This document shows positions 3,998 through 10,809 of a stretch of 64,000 bases of DNA, one piece after another; position 1 is the first letter of the stretch; each line of letters starts with the position of its first letter. Location of the stretch: assembly GCA_036261915.1 (NCBI GenBank), contig DATAJX010000001.1, forward strand, positions 83,875 to 147,874, read 5' to 3'. Source of the stretch: Alphaproteobacteria bacterium. GTDB taxonomy: Bacteria; Pseudomonadota; Alphaproteobacteria; UBA2136; UBA6156. The translations under genes and the position numbers were made by a program. The notes beneath the pieces were generated by a model. The model made no database searches. It was not told where the DNA came from and worked only from the letters and a program-made list of their open reading frames with translations.

Positions 3998-4001
3998 TCA
4001 A

Positions 4002-4331
4002 TTGCTTATCACCACCACGCCCTTTGTCGAGGGCTACCGCATCCGCAAATACGGCCCGCTTGTGGCGGCCGAGGCGGTGATGGGGACGAACATCTTCCGC
4101 GATTTTTTCGCCAAGGTACGAGATGTAGTGGGTGGCCGCAGCAGCGCCTTTCAGGCCGCCCTGGCAAACGCCCGCGAGCTGACTTTACGGGAAGTAACCG
4201 AGCAGGCGGAGCGGGCGGGTTGTAATGCTATCATAGGGTTAGATATAGATTATGGCGAGATCTCGGGCGGCGGGATGACCATGCTGATGGTGGCTGTTCA
4301 GGGCAGTGCCGTATTTATTGAGCCTGCATAA
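4002..4331 (+). CDS. ybjQ: YbjQ/UPF0145 family protein (heavy-metal-binding-like domain)
   Basis: LITTTPFVEGYRI...GTNIFRDFFAKVRDVVGGRS...IIGLDIDYGEISGGGMTMLMV matches the UPF0145 signature; TTG start at 4002 chosen by alignment with the family N-terminus (MxxxTTP). Confidence 0.7.
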   Translation: MLITTTPFVEGYRIRKYGPLVAAEAVMGTNIFRDFFAKVRDVVGGRSSAFQAALANARELTLREVTEQAERAGCNAIIGLDIDYGEISGGGMTMLMVAVQGSAVFIEPA

Positions 4332-4413: not shown

Positions 4414-5436
4414 ATGCAGGAAAACCAAGGATGTTTTAGTGATGCGCGGTGGGCGCTTTTTTGGAGCGCGGATGTGCTGCGACGTCGATATTTGCCGAAG
4501 ATTGGGGCTTTTTGGCGCGAAATTGATGCCGAAGGGTCGCGCGAACTTGAAAGCCTGCAGACCGGGGTGTCGGGGAGGGCGGAAAAAGGGGTGGAGAAGA
4601 TACGGCTGCCCGATGACGAGGAGGGGCGGCATGCGTTGGCGCTGAAGGTGGAGGATGTGCTGCGCGGGATGGGGTTGCCCCATGGATTGTTATTGCGGCA
4701 ACTGGCCTGGGGGGATGCGTGGTGCGATGCCGCCTTGCGGGCCGCGATGGCTCACCGCGAAAAGGCTCGGCGCGAAGGCGTGCGCGTGCGGGTGAACTAC
4801 GTGACCCGGCAACTGCCGTTGACGGCCGAGCAGCAGGCGCAGAAGGACCAACTGACGCAGATCATGAACGACAGCCTGACGCAGATACAAAAGCTATCGA
4901 GCGGTGACTACACCGCCGATGCCGCTACCCAGAAAGTGCTGGACCAGTGGAAAGAGGCGCAGCAGAAAATTGTGGATAGTGGTTTTGTGACCCGTACCCA
5001 GCAGGAGGAGCAGACCTTGGCCGCTCGAGGTATTGGTGACAGTAGCGCCGCGCAGAGCGTGCGGCGCCAGCGCCGGTTGGACCAGCAAAGTGCCACGCAG
5101 AATCTTCAGAACGCTGAAGATGAAATGGGTAGCCAGGTGCGCAGCCAGAACCTGCAGCTGCAGCAGCAGCTGTATAACCTTGCTGCCAGCGGCATTGACA
5201 GCAAGCAGGCTGCGGCACAGGCCGCGGCAGCCACCAGCCTGAGCGGCAGTTTTGCGCAGGATGCGCGGCGCCAGGCCAGCCTGCTGGATTACTATAACAA
5301 GAGCAATAGTGGCGGCGGGTATAGCGTTTTCAACCAATCGCTGCAGAGCGGGTTGGGGGGAGGCCTTTCGAAGGTATTTGGTTTGCCGGGTACTTTTTTG
5401 GGAACCTTGTTTGGAAATAACAACGGGAGGAACTGA
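4414..5436 (+). CDS. Hypothetical Gln-rich coiled-coil protein with Gly-rich C-terminus (340 aa)
   Basis: GGGAGG RBS 5 nt upstream of ATG; Q/A-rich central region, C-terminal GGGLSKVFGLPGTFLGTLFG glycine-zipper-like segment; lower local GC; no family recognised. Confidence 0.55.
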   Translation: MQENQGCFSDARWALFWSADVLRRRYLPKIGAFWREIDAEGSRELESLQTGVSGRAEKGVEKIRLPDDEEGRHALALKVEDVLRGMGLPHGLLLRQLAWGDAWCDAALRAAMAHREKARREGVRVRVNYVTRQLPLTAEQQAQKDQLTQIMNDSLTQIQKLSSGDYTADAATQKVLDQWKEAQQKIVDSGFVTRTQQEEQTLAARGIGDSSAAQSVRRQRRLDQQSATQNLQNAEDEMGSQVRSQNLQLQQQLYNLAASGIDSKQAAAQAAAATSLSGSFAQDARRQASLLDYYNKSNSGGGYSVFNQSLQSGLGGGLSKVFGLPGTFLGTLFGNNNGRN

Positions 5437-5437
5437 A

Positions 5438-5785
5438 ATGGCTGATTTGACTTTGAAGCAATGGCACGAACAGCAATTTTTGCCCTGGAAGCAGGCCGTG
5501 GCCAAGGTGATGGAGAAGCGCCAGGAAGAACGCGAGATGTTCCAGCAGCATGTGGGCCAGTTGCAAAGCATACTGGCTTTGCTGCTGGAGGGGCGTAACC
5601 GTCAGGCCGTGCTGGCGTGGAATACGCTGCACCTGAAACCGACTCTGGCCGATATACGGCTGGGGAGCGACAGCGAGACCGTGACCCTGATGCCGCTAAG
5701 CGGTGAGCCGTTACAGATGGGGCTGGATGAGATTATCGCCGACCTTCAGCGCATGCTGGACGAACGCGGCAACAGCCTGAAGTAA
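5438..5785 (+). CDS. Hypothetical acidic protein (115 aa), translationally coupled to upstream gene
   Basis: ATG 5438 immediately after upstream TGA, GGGAGG 7 nt upstream; no recognisable domain. Confidence 0.5.
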   Translation: MADLTLKQWHEQQFLPWKQAVAKVMEKRQEEREMFQQHVGQLQSILALLLEGRNRQAVLAWNTLHLKPTLADIRLGSDSETVTLMPLSGEPLQMGLDEIIADLQRMLDERGNSLK

Positions 5786-6322
5786 TTACTCGGTGTCGTC
5801 GTCTTGCGCCTGTTCAAGCAGGCGGGCCTTGATGTCTTCGGCCAGTTTGCGGTCGGCGTCGGCATCGGTGGTTTCGGTGGTGATCATTTCGGCCAGCAGT
5901 TGCTGCCAGCTTTCGTCGAGCGCTTGCGGAAACACGCGCTGGTCGAGGTAGATTTCCCAGAAGTTGGCGACTTCGTTGGCCAGGCGGGGATCGATGATGC
6001 TTTGGCGCTGGTAGCCGAGGATGGCGGTATCATGCAGCGACACGATGACCTGTTTGCGCGTGTGGTAGCTGAGGTTGCCGTGGTAGCCCTTGCCGAGCAC
6101 GGGTTCGAGCAGGCGATACAGGTCGGCTTCGTCTTGCACCAGGCCGGGGGCGCAGCGAACATCGTGCGGCAGCAGGTAGCCGTAGCGGGTGATGAGGTCG
6201 GCCGTGGCAGGCGGAAAGTCGAACGCGAGTTCTTTGCCCTCACGGGTCAGCAAAATATTGTAACGCAGCGGCGTTAAAGGGTTGGGAGCGCCGGCAGAGG
6301 GCGTGGTTTCGGGGTTGCTCAT
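5786..6322 (-). CDS. Hypothetical protein (178 aa)
   Basis: Long ORF, convergent with 5438..5785 (stop codons abut: TAATTA); no family recognised. Confidence 0.45.
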   Translation of the reverse strand: MSNPETTPSAGAPNPLTPLRYNILLTREGKELAFDFPPATADLITRYGYLLPHDVRCAPGLVQDEADLYRLLEPVLGKGYHGNLSYHTRKQVIVSLHDTAILGYQRQSIIDPRLANEVANFWEIYLDQRVFPQALDESWQQLLAEMITTETTDADADRKLAEDIKARLLEQAQDDDTE

Positions 6323-6397
6323 GCCGCCAACTTATAGGCGCGCGGCGGCCTCGGCAAGCCGGGTGCCTGCGCATAAGGCGCGGCGGAATATAAGGGA

Positions 6398-6577
6398 ATG
6401 GATATGGAGAGCAGGGAGATTATCGGCGAAATCCGCCAGATTCGGTTTGAAATACGTGAGTTAAAAGAGGAATTGCAACGTTACAAGGGGTTTGTGGGCG
6501 GCGTGGCCTGGTGCCTGAGTGCGTTGACGGCGGTTGTGGGTTTTGTGTGGGGCACGTTGAGTTCGGGGAGCCACTGA
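6398..6577 (+). CDS. Small membrane protein (59 aa), candidate holin/spanin-like component
   Basis: MDMESREIIGEIRQIRFEIRELKEELQRYKG followed by hydrophobic helix FVGGVAWCLSALTAVVGFVWG; stop TGA overlaps the amidase ATG (TGATG); below the 60-aa cut-off of the ORF track. Confidence 0.45.
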   Translation: MDMESREIIGEIRQIRFEIRELKEELQRYKGFVGGVAWCLSALTAVVGFVWGTLSSGSH

Positions 6578-6951
6578 TGCGGGTGATCAATAAACATATC
6601 ATTCATTGCAGTGACAGCGAGGTGGGCGATGTGAAGCTTATTCGCCAATGGCACATTGAGCGCGGCTGGCAGGATGTGGGGTATCATTTTATCATTCGGC
6701 GTGATGGCGAAATTGAAGTGGGCCGCACGCTGGAAGAAATGGGTGCGCATTGCCAGGGGCAGAACGCCGACAGCATTGGCACGTGTTTGGTGGGGGTGAG
6801 GGATTTTACGCCCGGCCAGTTTGCGGCGTTGAAGCGTGTGCACGGGATGGTGCGAAGCCTGTTCCCCGGTGTGCGGGTGTTTAATCACTGCCAGTTCAAT
6901 GCCGGTAAGACCTGCCCCAATTTTGATGCGCATGACATATTGGGAGAATAA
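6577..6951 (+). CDS. N-acetylmuramoyl-L-alanine amidase (Amidase_2/PGRP, T7-lysozyme-like endolysin)
   Basis: KHIIHCSDSE...WHIERGW.DVGYHFIIRRDGEIEVGR...HC.G.N..SIG.CLVG...NHCQF...CPNFD matches the PGRP/AmpD zinc amidase fold; GGGGAG RBS 7 nt upstream of ATG 6577. Confidence 0.8.
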   Translation: MRVINKHIIHCSDSEVGDVKLIRQWHIERGWQDVGYHFIIRRDGEIEVGRTLEEMGAHCQGQNADSIGTCLVGVRDFTPGQFAALKRVHGMVRSLFPGVRVFNHCQFNAGKTCPNFDAHDILGE

Positions 6952-6953
6952 CG

Positions 6954-7364
6954 ATGGGTACTTTGGTGCTGCCTGTTATTCAGGTAATTATTGGTTACTT
7001 GCTAGCGCGTAAGACCGAAGTAGCTCGTGCTACCGGCCTGGCCGAGGACGGTGTAGCCAAGGTGGGCGAAGCCTTACAGAATTTCATGACGCAGGATACT
7101 GCTGCCCAACAGAAGATTTATGACGAGATGGATAAAGCCCGGCAGGCCGACGTAGCCACATTGCCCGGTGCGCCGCCCGTTGTGCTGCTGTTGCGCGGAC
7201 TTGTTCGGCCGGTGATTACGCTGGTGGCTTTTGGCTGGTATGTGGCGGCCCGTGCAAATGGCGTGACTTTGGGCAGTGAGGATTACGCCATTATTGGTGG
7301 GGTGGTTGCTTTCTGGTTTGGATTTCGGCCTTTTGAAAAGGGTTTTCGCCAGCCCAAGCCATGA
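6954..7364 (+). CDS. Three-TM membrane protein, putative holin-like
   Basis: Three predicted TM helices (res 3-18, ~75-100, ~112-125); immediately downstream of endolysin-type amidase (2 nt gap). Confidence 0.5.
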   Translation: MGTLVLPVIQVIIGYLLARKTEVARATGLAEDGVAKVGEALQNFMTQDTAAQQKIYDEMDKARQADVATLPGAPPVVLLLRGLVRPVITLVAFGWYVAARANGVTLGSEDYAIIGGVVAFWFGFRPFEKGFRQPKP

Positions 7365-7460
7365 CGGCGGCAATATCACACACGTGTTGCATTTTTTTGC
7401 CAAGCGCTTTGTAACATGTTAGAAATTCGGCATTCTGAATAAACACAAGAAATGCGTTAA

Positions 7461-8093
7461 ATGGCTGCCCAACAGACAAACATGGAAGAAATTCTAACCT
7501 CCATCCGCACCACGCTGGCGGAGGAAACGGCTAAGGCGGGCACCCCCGCGGCTACGGCTGTGGCTGAAGAGATGTCGGATGAAGAAGTGCTTGCGCTCTC
7601 GGAAGCCGATGTGATGCCCGCTGCCAATGCCGAAGAAACGGTGGACCTTGCCGCGTTTGGACAGGAAGGTGAAGTGAAGATGCAACCCGCCGCGAACGTG
7701 AGCGCCAATGCCGATGTATTGGGTGAGGGGCCTGAAACTCCAGTTGCAGCAACAGCTGCCCCGGCTGCTCCTGTTGAAGCCGCCGCTGCCCCGGCCGCTA
7801 CACCTGCGCCCGCCAAGCAGGCTGATGACCTGGATAAGCTGATTGCGGAGATCGCTTCGGAGCCCGCACCTGCTGCTGCCCCGACAGTGCCTGCTGCATC
7901 TGCCGGTGTTGCGAATGCCCCGGTTTCGTTGGGTTTGGTGGGCGACGTGGCCGATCTGCAAGTGGCTTTGCCGGCCGAAGTTTTGGCCGCTGCCCTGCGC
8001 CCGCTGGTGCAAACCTGGCTGGAACAGAACCTTGCCGGGGTGGTTGAGCGCCTTGTGCAGGCTGAAATCAGCAAGCTTTCCAACGCCGAGTAA
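7461..8093 (+). CDS. popZ: PopZ-like polar organizing protein (DUF2497)
   Basis: N-terminal MEEILTSIRTTL and C-terminal LRPLVQTWLEQNLAGVVERLVQAEISKL match the PopZ conserved N/C termini flanking a low-complexity A/P/E-rich linker. Confidence 0.7.
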   Translation: MAAQQTNMEEILTSIRTTLAEETAKAGTPAATAVAEEMSDEEVLALSEADVMPAANAEETVDLAAFGQEGEVKMQPAANVSANADVLGEGPETPVAATAAPAAPVEAAAAPAATPAPAKQADDLDKLIAEIASEPAPAAAPTVPAASAGVANAPVSLGLVGDVADLQVALPAEVLAAALRPLVQTWLEQNLAGVVERLVQAEISKLSNAE

Positions 8094-8163: not shown

Positions 8164-10809
8164 ATGCTCGACACACGGTATGATTTTAAGGCGATTGAAT
8201 CGCGGCTGACCTCGGAATGGGAAAAGGCCGGGTGCTTTGATGCCGTGCTCGATGGCCGCAAGCCGTTTGCCATTATGATGCCGCCGCCCAATGTCACCGG
8301 CACGCTGCATTTGGGGCATGCGCTGGATAATACATTGCCTGATATCCTCATTCGTCGTGCCCGCATGCAGGGGCTTGCTGCGTTGTACCAACCAGGCACC
8401 GACCACGCCAGCATTGCCGTGCACGTGGTGCTGGAACGCCAATGGGCCAAGGAAGGCAAAAACCGTTTTGATTACGGCCGTGAGAAGTTCCTTGAAAAGG
8501 CGTGGGAGTGGAAAGACTACTCTGCCGGTATCATCACCACCCAGTTGCGCCGCCTGGGTATCAGCTGCGACTGGAAGCACGAACGTTTTACCATGGACCC
8601 TGCCTATGCGGCAGCCGTGAACGAGGCCTTTGTGACCCTGCACCAGAAAGGCCTGATTTACCGTGGCCAGCGTTTGGTGAACTGGGACCCCAAGATGCAA
8701 ACCGCGGTGAGCGACCTTGAAGTAAAGCACAAGGAAGTGAACGGCCACCTGTGGCATGTGCGTTATAAATTTGCCGATGGCTTCAAGTATAAGGGCGAAG
8801 ACGGCATTGAAATTGCCACCACCCGGCCCGAAACCATTTTGGCCGATGCCGCCATTGCCATTAACCCGAAGGACAAGCGCGCCAAGGATTTGGTGGGCAA
8901 AATGGTGGTTGTGCCGGTGTGCAATCGCCAAATCCCCATCATTGCCGATGAGATGGCCGACCCTGAATTTGGCAGCGGCATGGTGAAGGTGACCCCCGCG
9001 CACGATTTTAACGACTTTGCGTTTTACCAGCGCCACAAGGACGAAGCCGATATTCCTCTAATAAACTTGCTGACGCCGGACGCGCACCTGAACGAAAACG
9101 CGCCCGCCGGATATGTGGGGTTGGAGCGGTTTGCCGCGCGCAAAAAAATGGTGGCCGAACTGGAAGAACTTGGCCAGCTGATTAAGGCCGAACCGCACGT
9201 TCATAACGTGGGCCATGCCGAGCGCGATGATATTATCCTTGAGCCTTACCTGACCTGGCAGTGGTACGTAAAAACCGGCCCGCTGGCTGAAAAGTGCCTG
9301 AAGGCTGCCGATAATGGCGATATTGAATTCATTAACGACCGTGACGAAAAAATTTACCGCCACTGGCTGGAGAACATTCAGGACTGGTGTATCTCTCGCC
9401 AATTGTGGTGGGGCCACCGCATACCCGCATGGTATCGCGGTAACGAGGTTTATGTGGGCACCGCCGCCCCGCAAGGCGAGGGCTGGAAGCAGGACGAAGA
9501 TATTCTCGATACCTGGTTCAGCAGCGGCCTGTGGCCCTTTGCCACGCAAGGCTGGCCGCAGGGCGGCGAACGCCTGCAGACCTTTTACCCCAACAGTGCC
9601 ATTACGCCTGGGCGCGATATTCTGTTTTTCTGGGTCATCCGCATGATGATGATGGGGCTGGAACTCACCGGCAAAGCGCCATTCAAAACCATTTACACCC
9701 ACGGGCTTATCAACGATGAGCACGGCCAGAAAATGAGCAAGAGCAAAGGCAATGTGCTAGACCCCATTGGGCTGATGGATGAATTTGGCACCGACGCCCT
9801 GCGCCTGACCATGGCCACCATTGCCAGCAGCGAAGACATGCGTTTTTCGACCGGCAAGGTTGAGCAGAGCCGTAATTTTTGCACCAAACTGTGGAACGCT
9901 GCGCGTTACCTGGCGCTGCAAGATGTGCGTTGGCTGCCCGAGGACGAAGCCAAGTTCGATGTGCAGACCATCAAACACCCCATCAACCGTTGGCTGGTTG
10001 GCCGGTTGGCCGAGATGGCTACGTCGGTCGATAAACACCTCGATGCCTACGCCTTCAACCAGGCCGCGCAGGAAGTGTACCACTTCACCTGGGGCACGTG
10101 GTGCGACTGGTATCTGGAGCTGACCAAACCGCTGCTGCGCGATACCGATGCCGCCGTGGTGGCCGAAACCAAAAATGTGCTGGGTTGGGCATTCGAGAAA
10201 ATTCTGCGCATCCTGCATCCGTTCACGCCGTTTATCACCGAAGAACTCTGGCAGGGCCACACCGTTGCCGAAAAGAACAATTACCTGATGCTGCAACGCT
10301 GGCCTGTTGCGGCCAACTGGCCTGTCGACAAGGCTGCGCGCGTCACCATCGACAGGCTGGTGGCGTTAACCGGCGCGGTGCGTCAGGCCCGCATGATGCA
10401 CAAACTGTCGTTTAAAATTCCGCTCAATATTTTCCGCAAGGGCGAGGGGGCTTTACCCGCCGAATGGCAGGAAATTTCGGCCTACCTGAAGCCATTAGCG
10501 GGCGTGGGCGAGTTCGCCCAGCGCAATAACCCGCCTGCCGCAGGCGAAGCCACGCTGGTGGTCGAGGGCGACGAATTTATTCTGCCGCTGACCGGCCTGA
10601 TCGATCTGGCCGCCGAGCGCGAGCGCTTGCAGAAAGAACTGAACAACCAGCAGGCTGAACTTTCGAAGATCGACAACCTGCTGGGTAACGCAGGCTTTGT
10701 GGCTAAGGCCCCGCCCGCCGTGCTCGAGCAGAACCGCGACCGCCAGAACGTACTGCGCGACAGCACAAACAAAATCGAAGCGCTGCTGAAAGGCCCTTAC
10801 GCGGTTTAA
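8164..10809 (+). CDS. valS: Valine--tRNA ligase
   Basis: HIGH-class motif PNVTGTLHLGHAL, KMSKS motif KMSKSKGN, 881 aa, C-terminal coiled coil. Confidence 0.95.
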   Translation: MLDTRYDFKAIESRLTSEWEKAGCFDAVLDGRKPFAIMMPPPNVTGTLHLGHALDNTLPDILIRRARMQGLAALYQPGTDHASIAVHVVLERQWAKEGKNRFDYGREKFLEKAWEWKDYSAGIITTQLRRLGISCDWKHERFTMDPAYAAAVNEAFVTLHQKGLIYRGQRLVNWDPKMQTAVSDLEVKHKEVNGHLWHVRYKFADGFKYKGEDGIEIATTRPETILADAAIAINPKDKRAKDLVGKMVVVPVCNRQIPIIADEMADPEFGSGMVKVTPAHDFNDFAFYQRHKDEADIPLINLLTPDAHLNENAPAGYVGLERFAARKKMVAELEELGQLIKAEPHVHNVGHAERDDIILEPYLTWQWYVKTGPLAEKCLKAADNGDIEFINDRDEKIYRHWLENIQDWCISRQLWWGHRIPAWYRGNEVYVGTAAPQGEGWKQDEDILDTWFSSGLWPFATQGWPQGGERLQTFYPNSAITPGRDILFFWVIRMMMMGLELTGKAPFKTIYTHGLINDEHGQKMSKSKGNVLDPIGLMDEFGTDALRLTMATIASSEDMRFSTGKVEQSRNFCTKLWNAARYLALQDVRWLPEDEAKFDVQTIKHPINRWLVGRLAEMATSVDKHLDAYAFNQAAQEVYHFTWGTWCDWYLELTKPLLRDTDAAVVAETKNVLGWAFEKILRILHPFTPFITEELWQGHTVAEKNNYLMLQRWPVAANWPVDKAARVTIDRLVALTGAVRQARMMHKLSFKIPLNIFRKGEGALPAEWQEISAYLKPLAGVGEFAQRNNPPAAGEATLVVEGDEFILPLTGLIDLAAERERLQKELNNQQAELSKIDNLLGNAGFVAKAPPAVLEQNRDRQNVLRDSTNKIEALLKGPYAV

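Follow-up and report, generated by a model that had tools for sequence, protein, structure and literature searches.

The release locus of the Rhodobacter capsulatus gene transfer agent (RcGTA), rcc00555/556, consists of an endolysin and a holin gene (PMC5026251). In the Vibrio phage ICP1 the protein TeaA is an experimentally supported PF11351 holin and a transmembrane (TM) antiholin, ArrA, is encoded next to it (PMC7182436). By family naming, the PF11351 superfamily (GTA_holin_3TM) takes in the rcc00555/556 holin as well. A further described arrangement is xhlA-xhlB-xlyA of PBSX in Bacillus subtilis, the lysis cassette of a defective, DNA-packaging prophage. Here we analyzed a three-gene lysis cassette of an uncultured alphaproteobacterium, located at positions 6398-7364 of a 64,000-nt stretch of contig DATAJX010000001.1 (assembly GCA_036261915.1). 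This whole stretch is called the window, and positions given without a locus name are numbered within it.

We are fairly confident that the cassette is a phage-derived holin-endolysin module which was orphaned by a deletion from a domesticated cluster. The preliminary description of this DNA had read it as a phage-type holin-endolysin cassette, either a module for the release of a gene transfer agent (GTA) or a prophage remnant. This core reading was supported by the amidase match of the second gene and the PF11351 homology of the third. In related genomes the cassette belongs to a phage-derived cluster of about 15 kb. The cassette comprises the following genes:

6398-6577, + strand: 59-aa tail-anchored membrane protein (coiled coil at the N-terminus, TM segment of residues 31-55 at the C-terminus; family motif), proposed antiholin or co-holin
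6577-6951, + strand: 124-aa N-acetylmuramoyl-L-alanine amidase (Amidase_2, T7-lysozyme/PGRP type; PF01510, phrog_822, 1lba), predicted cytoplasmic endolysin
6954-7364, + strand: 136-aa membrane protein, divergent member of the PF11351 superfamily by profile homology, proposed holin by this homology and its position 3' of the endolysin gene

The cassette resembles the RcGTA release genes in that an endolysin gene adjoins the gene of a GTA_holin_3TM-superfamily membrane protein. Furthermore, RcGTA is likewise a chromosomally fixed, vertically inherited phage-derived system with conserved host flanks (PMC5026251). There are differences, however. The window protein lies under the Pfam threshold of PF11351, and the rcc00555 and rcc00556 sequences were not compared with it directly. 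Here the lysis genes directly adjoin the head-tail genes, whereas those of RcGTA are found at a separate locus, and an additional 59-aa tail-anchored protein is encoded upstream. Finally, the structural genes are of the P22-portal, Phage_capsid_3 and SU10-adaptor types and those of RcGTA are of the HK97 type.

With ICP1 the cassette shares the adjacent encoding of a PF11351-related putative holin and a small TM protein, which in ICP1 is a regulator; the holin activity of TeaA is experimental (PMC7182436). However, ICP1 belongs to the lytic myoviruses, we claim no similarity in sequence between ArrA and the 59-aa protein, and lysis inhibition is not implied here. The PBSX cassette also combines a small protein with coiled coil and C-terminal TM segment, a holin and an amidase within a domesticated phage-like element. 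It differs in gene order and in its Gram-positive host, and the XhlA family of Pfam has no match in the window protein; the likeness is an architectural analogy only.

Structure and composition of the cassette

All three open reading frames (ORFs) were found on the + strand at the positions given in the preliminary description, the second having 124 aa when read from its ATG. The coupled junctions, read directly from the sequence, were confirmed as well: the TGA at 6575-6577 overlaps the ATG at 6577-6579, and the TAA at 6949-6951 is separated by 2 nt from the ATG at 6954. Shine-Dalgarno (SD)-like purine runs (AAGGGA, GGGGAG and GGGAGA) are located 4-7 nt 5' of the three starts. The ratio of nonsynonymous to synonymous substitution rates (dN/dS) against the closest relative was 0.28 for the 59-aa gene, 0.21 for the amidase gene and 0.10 for the 136-aa gene. 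Since each gene has many homologues and a low dN/dS, these are real genes and not chance ORFs. The three genes form a translationally coupled phage-type lysis operon; taken alone, such a cassette is routine.

The proposed lower GC content was confirmed for the block (58.0%) and for the cassette (54.6%) when compared to the window (61.2%), but it is not peculiar to them, as valS-argS has a similar value (58.1%). The GC skew of the block (+0.21) was the highest among all 3-kb windows. In composition, GC skew thus sets the element apart more sharply than GC content does. Between positions 4000 and 7500 the G-over-C skew of the + strand showed peaks of +0.2 to +0.35, with an average of -0.08 for the 64 kb.

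Amidase

The second gene product matched PF01510 (Amidase_2) with 41.2 bits (cut-off 26) and phrog_822, annotated as amidase, with an E-value of 1.5e-38. Its best solved relative was T7 lysozyme (E 1.4e-23 in phmmer, with alignment to 1lba/1aro). Residues H10, Y36, H114, K121 and C123 align with H17, Y46, H122, K128 and C130 of T7 lysozyme, of which we take H17, H122 and C130 to be the zinc ligands and Y46 and K128 to be catalytic. Compared with endolysins of T7-like phages and of Rhizobium phages, the protein shows 44-49% identity. The assignment to the T7-lysozyme/PGRP-type endolysins made beforehand is therefore well founded on the T7 lysozyme and phrog_822 matches and the five aligned residues.

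A signal peptide had been denied for this protein, and indeed neither a hydrophobic segment (maximum Kyte-Doolittle (KD) value 0.87) nor a signal-anchor-release (SAR) sequence was present; the catalytic core begins at residue ~8. The amidase would therefore need a holin. By sequence, it is a cytoplasmic endolysin of the Amidase_2/T7-lysozyme type with predicted muralytic activity. It shares with T7 lysozyme (gp3.5) and the T7-like amidases the Amidase_2 fold, all zinc and catalytic residues, the lack of a signal sequence and, as predicted here, the holin-dependent release. It differs by its moderate identity to the nearest phage enzymes and by its length (124 aa versus 151 aa).

The 136-aa protein

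Hydropathy analysis of the third gene product gave hydrophobic helices at residues 1-19, ~73-99 and 110-124, the last one being marginal (KD 1.5). In the AlphaFold2 model (28 homologues, mean confidence pLDDT 81) helices were present at residues 2-18, 75-101 and 108-121 together with a helical region at 20-68. The N-terminal hydrophobic segment was found in 23 of 28 family members. Of the three TM helices proposed earlier, two are hence clear and the model helices match all segments, but the third remains marginal by hydropathy.

Direct searches assigned the protein to no described holin family. It had no match in Pfam or NCBIfam and no match to a holin family in PHROGs; the sole direct hit was weak (6.8e-5) and concerned phrog_6637, which carries no functional label. 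No match was obtained by tblastn among 50,697 phage records, and the AlphaFold2 model retrieved nothing significant from BFVD (best E 1.9). The 76 close homologues are all annotated as hypothetical and originate from uncultured Alphaproteobacteria. Their C-terminal half is near-invariant (LRGLVRPVITL...W.V.AR...EDYAIIGG..AFWFGFRPFEK).

The family profile retrieved 116 sequences at E <= 1e-3 from 1.84 billion representative proteins. PF11351 was found in 27 of the 104 profile matches that were scanned, and no other family recurs. Two of these matches are P0220 (family-profile E 2e-9; PF11351 25.8 bits, over the cut-off of 24.8 bits) and P0222 (family-profile E 5e-8; PF11351 34.3 bits over its full length and over the gathering score). 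In hhalign, the 136-aa family aligned with six PF11351-positive proteins at 99.5% probability (E 3.9e-23, residues 52-134). Because the profile searches and hhalign link it to PF11351, we regard the 136-aa protein as a divergent member of the GTA-type holin superfamily. The search against holin families including the three-TM GTA holins, which the preliminary description had suggested, thus gave a positive result by way of the family profile in spite of the missing direct Pfam match. Judged by sequence homology, the family is a Pfam-invisible branch of the PF11351 superfamily and a proposed holin.

A segment of the family at residues ~20-45 (RKxDVAxxTGLSEDxVGKV) showed weak matches to helix-turn-helix (HTH) families of Pfam: LacI HTH in 6 of 28 members (best E 0.004), as well as HTH_Tnp_ISL3, HTH_26 and KORA. 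Probably this segment is a cytoplasmic helical hairpin, though it may have a part in binding DNA or protein. We dropped the idea of a membrane-anchored regulator, as the HTH matches are sub-threshold and it is the membrane C-terminus that is conserved and homologous to PF11351. One distant homologue, P0238 (299 aa; homology at residues 24-110), carries an SLT/muramidase domain (152-257) in fusion, which joins a holin-like domain and a peptidoglycan hydrolase in one polypeptide.

The 59-aa protein and gene order in phage contigs

As proposed beforehand, the 59-aa protein has one C-terminal TM segment by hydropathy (residues 31-55), which follows a charged, coiled-coil-like N-terminus. The motif ELxxIRxDIxxLxxExxxYKGFVGGVxW is kept across the elements. 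No match was found in Pfam, PHROG or NCBIfam. In the phage contigs L032, L036 (a viral contig of 40.5 kb) and L037 a protein with coiled coil and C-terminal TM segment is encoded at the corresponding position. By analogy with small TM proteins encoded beside holins, the most likely role of the 59-aa protein is to modulate or support the holin as an antiholin or co-holin. No indication of a spanin was obtained: region 6398-7460 contains no ORF with a lipobox, and the TM segment of the 59-aa protein lies at its C-terminus with only ~4 residues beyond it, not N-terminally in front of a periplasmic coiled coil.

An endolysin gene adjoins the gene of the 136-aa family in the window and in L005, L006, L011-14, L016, L017, L020, L024, L026, L030-32 and L035-37. 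In phage contigs the 136-aa homologue was always located directly 3' of the endolysin gene, and this endolysin was of different types: Amidase_2 in L005, L006 and L035, Peptidase_M15_3 in L032 and L037, and DUF5675 in L036. An enzyme that is swapped non-orthologously beside a constant membrane partner is a classic signature of lysis cassettes. Since the enzyme type varies in this way, the 136-aa protein is to be placed in a lysis cassette. The preliminary description would have had to be given up if the flanking membrane proteins had lacked any holin or spanin features; instead, the 136-aa protein is PF11351-homologous and encoded 3' of an endolysin.

At L023 (17757-18035) the holin side is swapped non-orthologously: the amidase is followed by a 92-aa membrane protein that is unrelated to the 136-aa family and takes its place. 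In a clade of otherwise intact elements the amidase gene is absent and the 59-aa and 136-aa genes are adjacent (L002 9601-10444, L003 9803-10447, L008 17316-17936 and L027 17282-17950). No amidase remnant was found in these four loci. For lysis, these elements must either make do with the membrane proteins or use an enzyme whose gene lies elsewhere.

The parent cluster in related genomes

The cassette had been described as a stand-alone module. This did not hold, as it represents the 3' end of a phage-derived cluster of ~15 kb which is internally deleted in the window and to which region 4414-6322 belongs as well. A capsid-based scan of GTDB species genomes yielded 21 loci, all from metagenome-assembled genomes (MAGs) of uncultured Alphaproteobacteria, and loci from metagenomes were added. 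The clusters were mapped by ORFs and BLAST, and the 19 genes of L014 were annotated gene by gene by family scans.

One colinear cluster of ~15.3 kb was found at this locus in more than 20 related alphaproteobacterial MAG species. In L014 it starts with genes for proteins of 232 aa, 281 aa, 141 aa (weak DUF5681) and 174 aa (DUF6973), the large terminase and a 105-aa protein. These are followed by the P22-type portal, a scaffold-like 211-aa protein, the major capsid protein, the SU10-type adaptor, a 580-aa nozzle-like protein and the tail fibre (Collar). The last part contains genes for proteins of 153 aa, 256 aa, 128 aa and, on the minus strand, 181 aa, and then the 57-aa, amidase and 136-aa genes. 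The structural families are P22_portal (phrog_156 portal), Phage_capsid_3 (phrog_334 capsid) and SU10_adaptor; the terminase belongs to phrog_2. No integrase, repressor, recombination or replication gene was present among the 19 genes of L014.

The ~580-aa protein after the adaptor (L014 11747-13489 and homologues) matched phrog_5107, labelled amidase in the lysis category, over its full length (3.6e-21). It may be a tail nozzle or a virion-associated hydrolase and not a lysis enzyme.

A temperate P22-like podophage, CBW1004C-Prop1 (35 kb), the nearest among annotated phages with a related capsid, resembles the cluster in its terminase-portal-scaffold-capsid order and in its major capsid protein, which is 36% identical. 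Phages of this type, however, carry integrase, repressor, recombination/replication and antitermination modules, which the 15-kb element lacks.

The element is bordered by two host genes:

4002-4331, + strand: ybjQ (YbjQ_1; Pfam 2.4e-28), left boundary
7461-8093, + strand: gene of a DUF2497 protein (Pfam), right boundary, followed by valS at 8164-10809

The ybjQ gene lies directly left of the element in the window, L014, L016, L020, L023, L024 and L025, which is every locus with a left flank that could be read. The DUF2497-valS flank on the right is shared by the window and the nearer relatives (L002, L003, L008, L012, L013, L014, L017, L027, L030/31 and L040/41), and more distant lineages retain the ybjQ side only. 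In Mantel tests on the pairwise identities of the seven taxa with a valS sequence, element genes tracked valS, with r of 0.88 for the 178-aa, 0.92 for the 136-aa, 0.97 for the 250-aa and 0.77 for the 115-aa gene (p <= 0.0024). Against the closest relative, in which valS and argS are 84% identical, dN/dS of the element genes was 0.10-0.28 and that of valS and argS 0.08-0.11; dS was of the same order. The capsid proteins are 71-93% identical among hosts, and their identity to any sequenced phage does not exceed 36%.

Because of the conserved flanks, the co-divergence with valS and the comparable dS, we conclude that the cluster has been vertically inherited under purifying selection in this uncultured alphaproteobacterial lineage. 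Conserved flanking host genes were also used to argue that the RcGTA loci are resident, host-inherited elements (PMC5026251). No description of the present element was found in the literature, the coverage of which was incomplete, so that this is weak evidence of novelty.

Deletion in the window

Three ORFs are located directly upstream of the cassette:

4414-5436, + strand: chimeric 340-aa ORF, deletion scar with a junction near nt 4770-4780 (blastp, alignments)
5438-5785, + strand: conserved 115-aa element protein, found at the same position in L002, L008, L014, L017, L020, L024 and L031 (dN/dS 0.15)
5786-6322, - strand: 178-aa protein, the most conserved element gene (119 homologues, 53-94% identity), divergent from the cassette

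Residues 1 to ~120 of the chimeric ORF align with the first gene of the element (232 aa in L014), and residues ~121-340 align with a conserved late protein of ~250 aa from its residue ~35 onwards. The two parent genes are ~12 kb apart in L014 (2718-3416 and 15256-16026), separated by the genes for terminase, portal, capsid, adaptor and tail. The entire 64-kb window was found to be free of portal and capsid sequences. As the chimeric ORF joins genes ~12 kb apart in L014 and portal and capsid are missing, an internal deletion of ~12 kb has taken place. The earlier statement that no phage structural genes are nearby is hence correct as regards capsid and portal, but the three ORFs directly upstream (4414-6322) come from the same phage-derived cluster.

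The closest relative retains intact genes for the tail fibre, the 170-aa and the 250-aa proteins, so that the deletion is lineage-specific. All contigs of this relative (L030, L031, L040 and L041) break inside the tail-fibre/250-aa region, which suggests strain-level variation or repeats there; the element of the nearest relative was thus read in parts.

The 178-aa protein is possibly a regulator. Its AlphaFold2 model had a pLDDT of 90.6, and fold searches with this model gave no significant match (best E 0.08 in PDB and 0.008 in BFVD, TM-scores < 0.3). At L028 (6121-6642) a homologue is the only element gene left and lies next to ybjQ; at L029 (10001-10495), a phage-like contig, a homologue is found among small early-type ORFs.

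None of the five remnant ORFs is interrupted, and neither is the chimeric ORF. In a relative-rate test against the relative with intact tail genes, window-specific substitutions numbered 9 versus 4 in the 136-aa gene, 6 versus 7 in the amidase gene and 5 versus 2 in the 59-aa gene, all of them non-significant, in a test which has low power if the deletion is recent. The window lineage thus shows no acceleration, a result that either a recent deletion or ongoing constraint would fit. In total, different stages were found across the lineages: intact clusters, the amidase-less clade, the frameshifted L026, the deleted copy of the window and the nearly erased L028. In L026 (2102-7931) each of three genes (portal, capsid and 585 aa) is broken into two ORFs, reflecting either pseudogenisation or assembly errors.

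Regulatory sequences

Regulation of the CtrA type, suggested beforehand as something to look for, found no support: the 64-kb window contains no TTAA-N7-TTAA site; GafA homologues were not searched for. The region between the 178-aa gene and the cassette reads as follows:

6323-6397: divergent intergenic region of 75 nt with GGCAC-N5-TTGC at 6354-6367 (- strand) and the SD-like AAGGGA of the 59-aa gene

The sigma-54-like motif GGCAC-N5-TTGC is located ~32 nt upstream of the start of the 178-aa gene on the minus strand. It was present at the same position in L002, L003, L008, L014 and L027 and as a variant in L030/31, and is absent as such in distant loci. We regard it as a candidate promoter, a lead and not a result. 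In L003, L008 and L027 a hairpin (GTGCCT-A/T run-AGGCAC) overlaps the motif. The region 3' of the 136-aa gene folds no better than shuffled sequences (z +1.0).

Proposed mechanism and alternative explanations

According to our proposal the T7-lysozyme-type zinc amidase would build up in the cytoplasm and the putative PF11351-superfamily holin of 136 aa in the inner membrane, where it would open holes when triggered. The amidase would then get to the peptidoglycan and cut the bond between N-acetylmuramic acid (MurNAc) and L-Ala. The tail-anchored coiled-coil protein of 59 aa may tune or assist the holin in a way analogous to ArrA of ICP1 or XhlA of PBSX. In the intact relatives the cassette would release particles. 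In the window lineage the ~12-kb deletion joined the first gene to a late gene, with the loss of every gene for packaging, head and tail; the cassette and its three neighbouring genes stayed behind as an orphaned, still intact remnant.

Several points weigh against this proposal. The putative holin assignment draws on remote homology and gene context. With a limit as lax as E <= 10, the Pfam model of PF11351 matched neither the 136-aa protein nor any of 28 close members of its family, and hydropathy shows the third TM segment as marginal. For the 59-aa protein we infer a role purely by analogy: the Pfam model PF10779 (XhlA) does not match it and reaches only E 0.27-0.32 with the counterparts in phage contigs. 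As the amidase is absent from the clade of L002, L003, L008 and L027, the membrane pair is not strictly dependent on it. Scans for sigma-70 promoters and terminators gave background level only. Furthermore, the source MAG is incomplete and a second, intact copy might exist elsewhere in the genome.

The closest rival is a decaying pseudo-operon which lost its function with the deletion, has not yet degraded and is silent or accidentally expressed. All particle genes are gone, hence nothing is left to release; no clear promoter or terminator was found, and decay has gone further elsewhere, as seen in the split genes of L026 and in L028 with its single 178-aa homologue. On the other hand, all remnant ORFs including the chimeric one are uninterrupted, the catalytic residues are intact and the relative-rate test revealed no excess of window-specific substitutions, with the low power already noted. 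We judge this explanation to be unlikely, yet it has more weight than the ones that follow. Secretion is a known second use of holin-endolysin pairs, and a co-opted host module, independent of particles, could serve programmed lysis for the release of extracellular DNA or vesicles, or an export resembling type 10 secretion. The deletion precisely spares the cassette and the highly conserved 178-aa gene, and there is no sign of relaxed constraint. However, no cargo gene is nearby, the neighbours being aminoacyl-tRNA synthetases, DUF2497 and ybjQ, and in all relatives the cassette is found joined to the head-tail genes, which makes co-option improbable.

An ordinary defective prophage, left by one of several temperate podophages that integrated repeatedly between ybjQ and DUF2497 and decayed in the window, would account for the phage-like structural genes (phrog_156 portal, phrog_334 capsid, phrog_2 terminase) and for the capsid relatives in temperate phages such as CBW1004C-Prop1 with its integrase and repressor. 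It has little probability in our view, since none of the loci carries an integrase, repressor, replication module, tRNA or att-like repeat. Neither the block of the window nor the intact relatives contain an integrase; the nearest tRNA is 30.7 kb away and only short direct or inverted repeats at chance level flank the block. The same compact 15-kb gene set recurs in more than 20 species, the distances of element genes track valS with dS comparable to the flanking genes, and the capsids are far closer among hosts (71-93%) than to any sequenced phage (<= 36%). Still less probable, to the point of being very improbable, is a housekeeping cell-wall amidase beside two unrelated small membrane proteins. 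Amidase_2 does take in AmpD and AmiD, and the NCBIfam model of AmpD gave a weak match (E 0.006), but its 16 bits are far under the cut-off of 143. The top matches are T7 lysozyme and phage endolysins, the surrounding genes are phage-derived, and phage contigs swap the endolysin non-orthologously beside the same membrane protein. An AmiD-like periplasmic role with a cryptic signal peptide, which would have spoken against the preliminary description, is also contradicted by the missing hydrophobic N-terminus.

Relation to gene transfer agents and significance

While we favour the orphaned holin-endolysin cassette for the window, the nature of its parent cluster is a separate question. That the cluster is a true GTA, of a previously unrecognised GTA-like family of podoviral ancestry independent of RcGTA, is a possibility that we hold tentatively and would place somewhat short of probable. 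A head-tail-lysis cluster lacking replication, integration and immunity genes was found in relatives (L014) but not in the window, and vertical inheritance is indicated by position and by co-divergence with host genes. The HK97-family portal, protease and capsid of the RcGTA family were not found in the cluster, which has P22_portal, Phage_capsid_3 and SU10_adaptor genes. The relatives of the capsid come from phages with genomes of 35-62 kb, and therefore the argument of a small head cannot be made. If the cluster is a GTA, which we leave somewhat in doubt, the module for its lysis function would be made up of a divergent holin of the GTA type, a new partner protein with a tail anchor and a T7-type amidase that is dispensable. 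The window lineage might then, equally tentatively, represent a stage shortly after the loss of particle production, at which the lysis genes and the 178-aa gene are still retained.

The cassette adds a Pfam-invisible branch to the GTA-type holin family together with a recurrent small tail-anchored partner that belongs to no family. The larger value lies in its context, a compact, replication-less and vertically inherited podovirus-like head-tail-lysis cluster in more than 20 uncultured alphaproteobacterial species. If this cluster makes particles, it would represent an independent domestication, in addition to those of RcGTA and BaGTA within this class of bacteria. The series from intact to decayed lineages could show how such elements are kept and lost.

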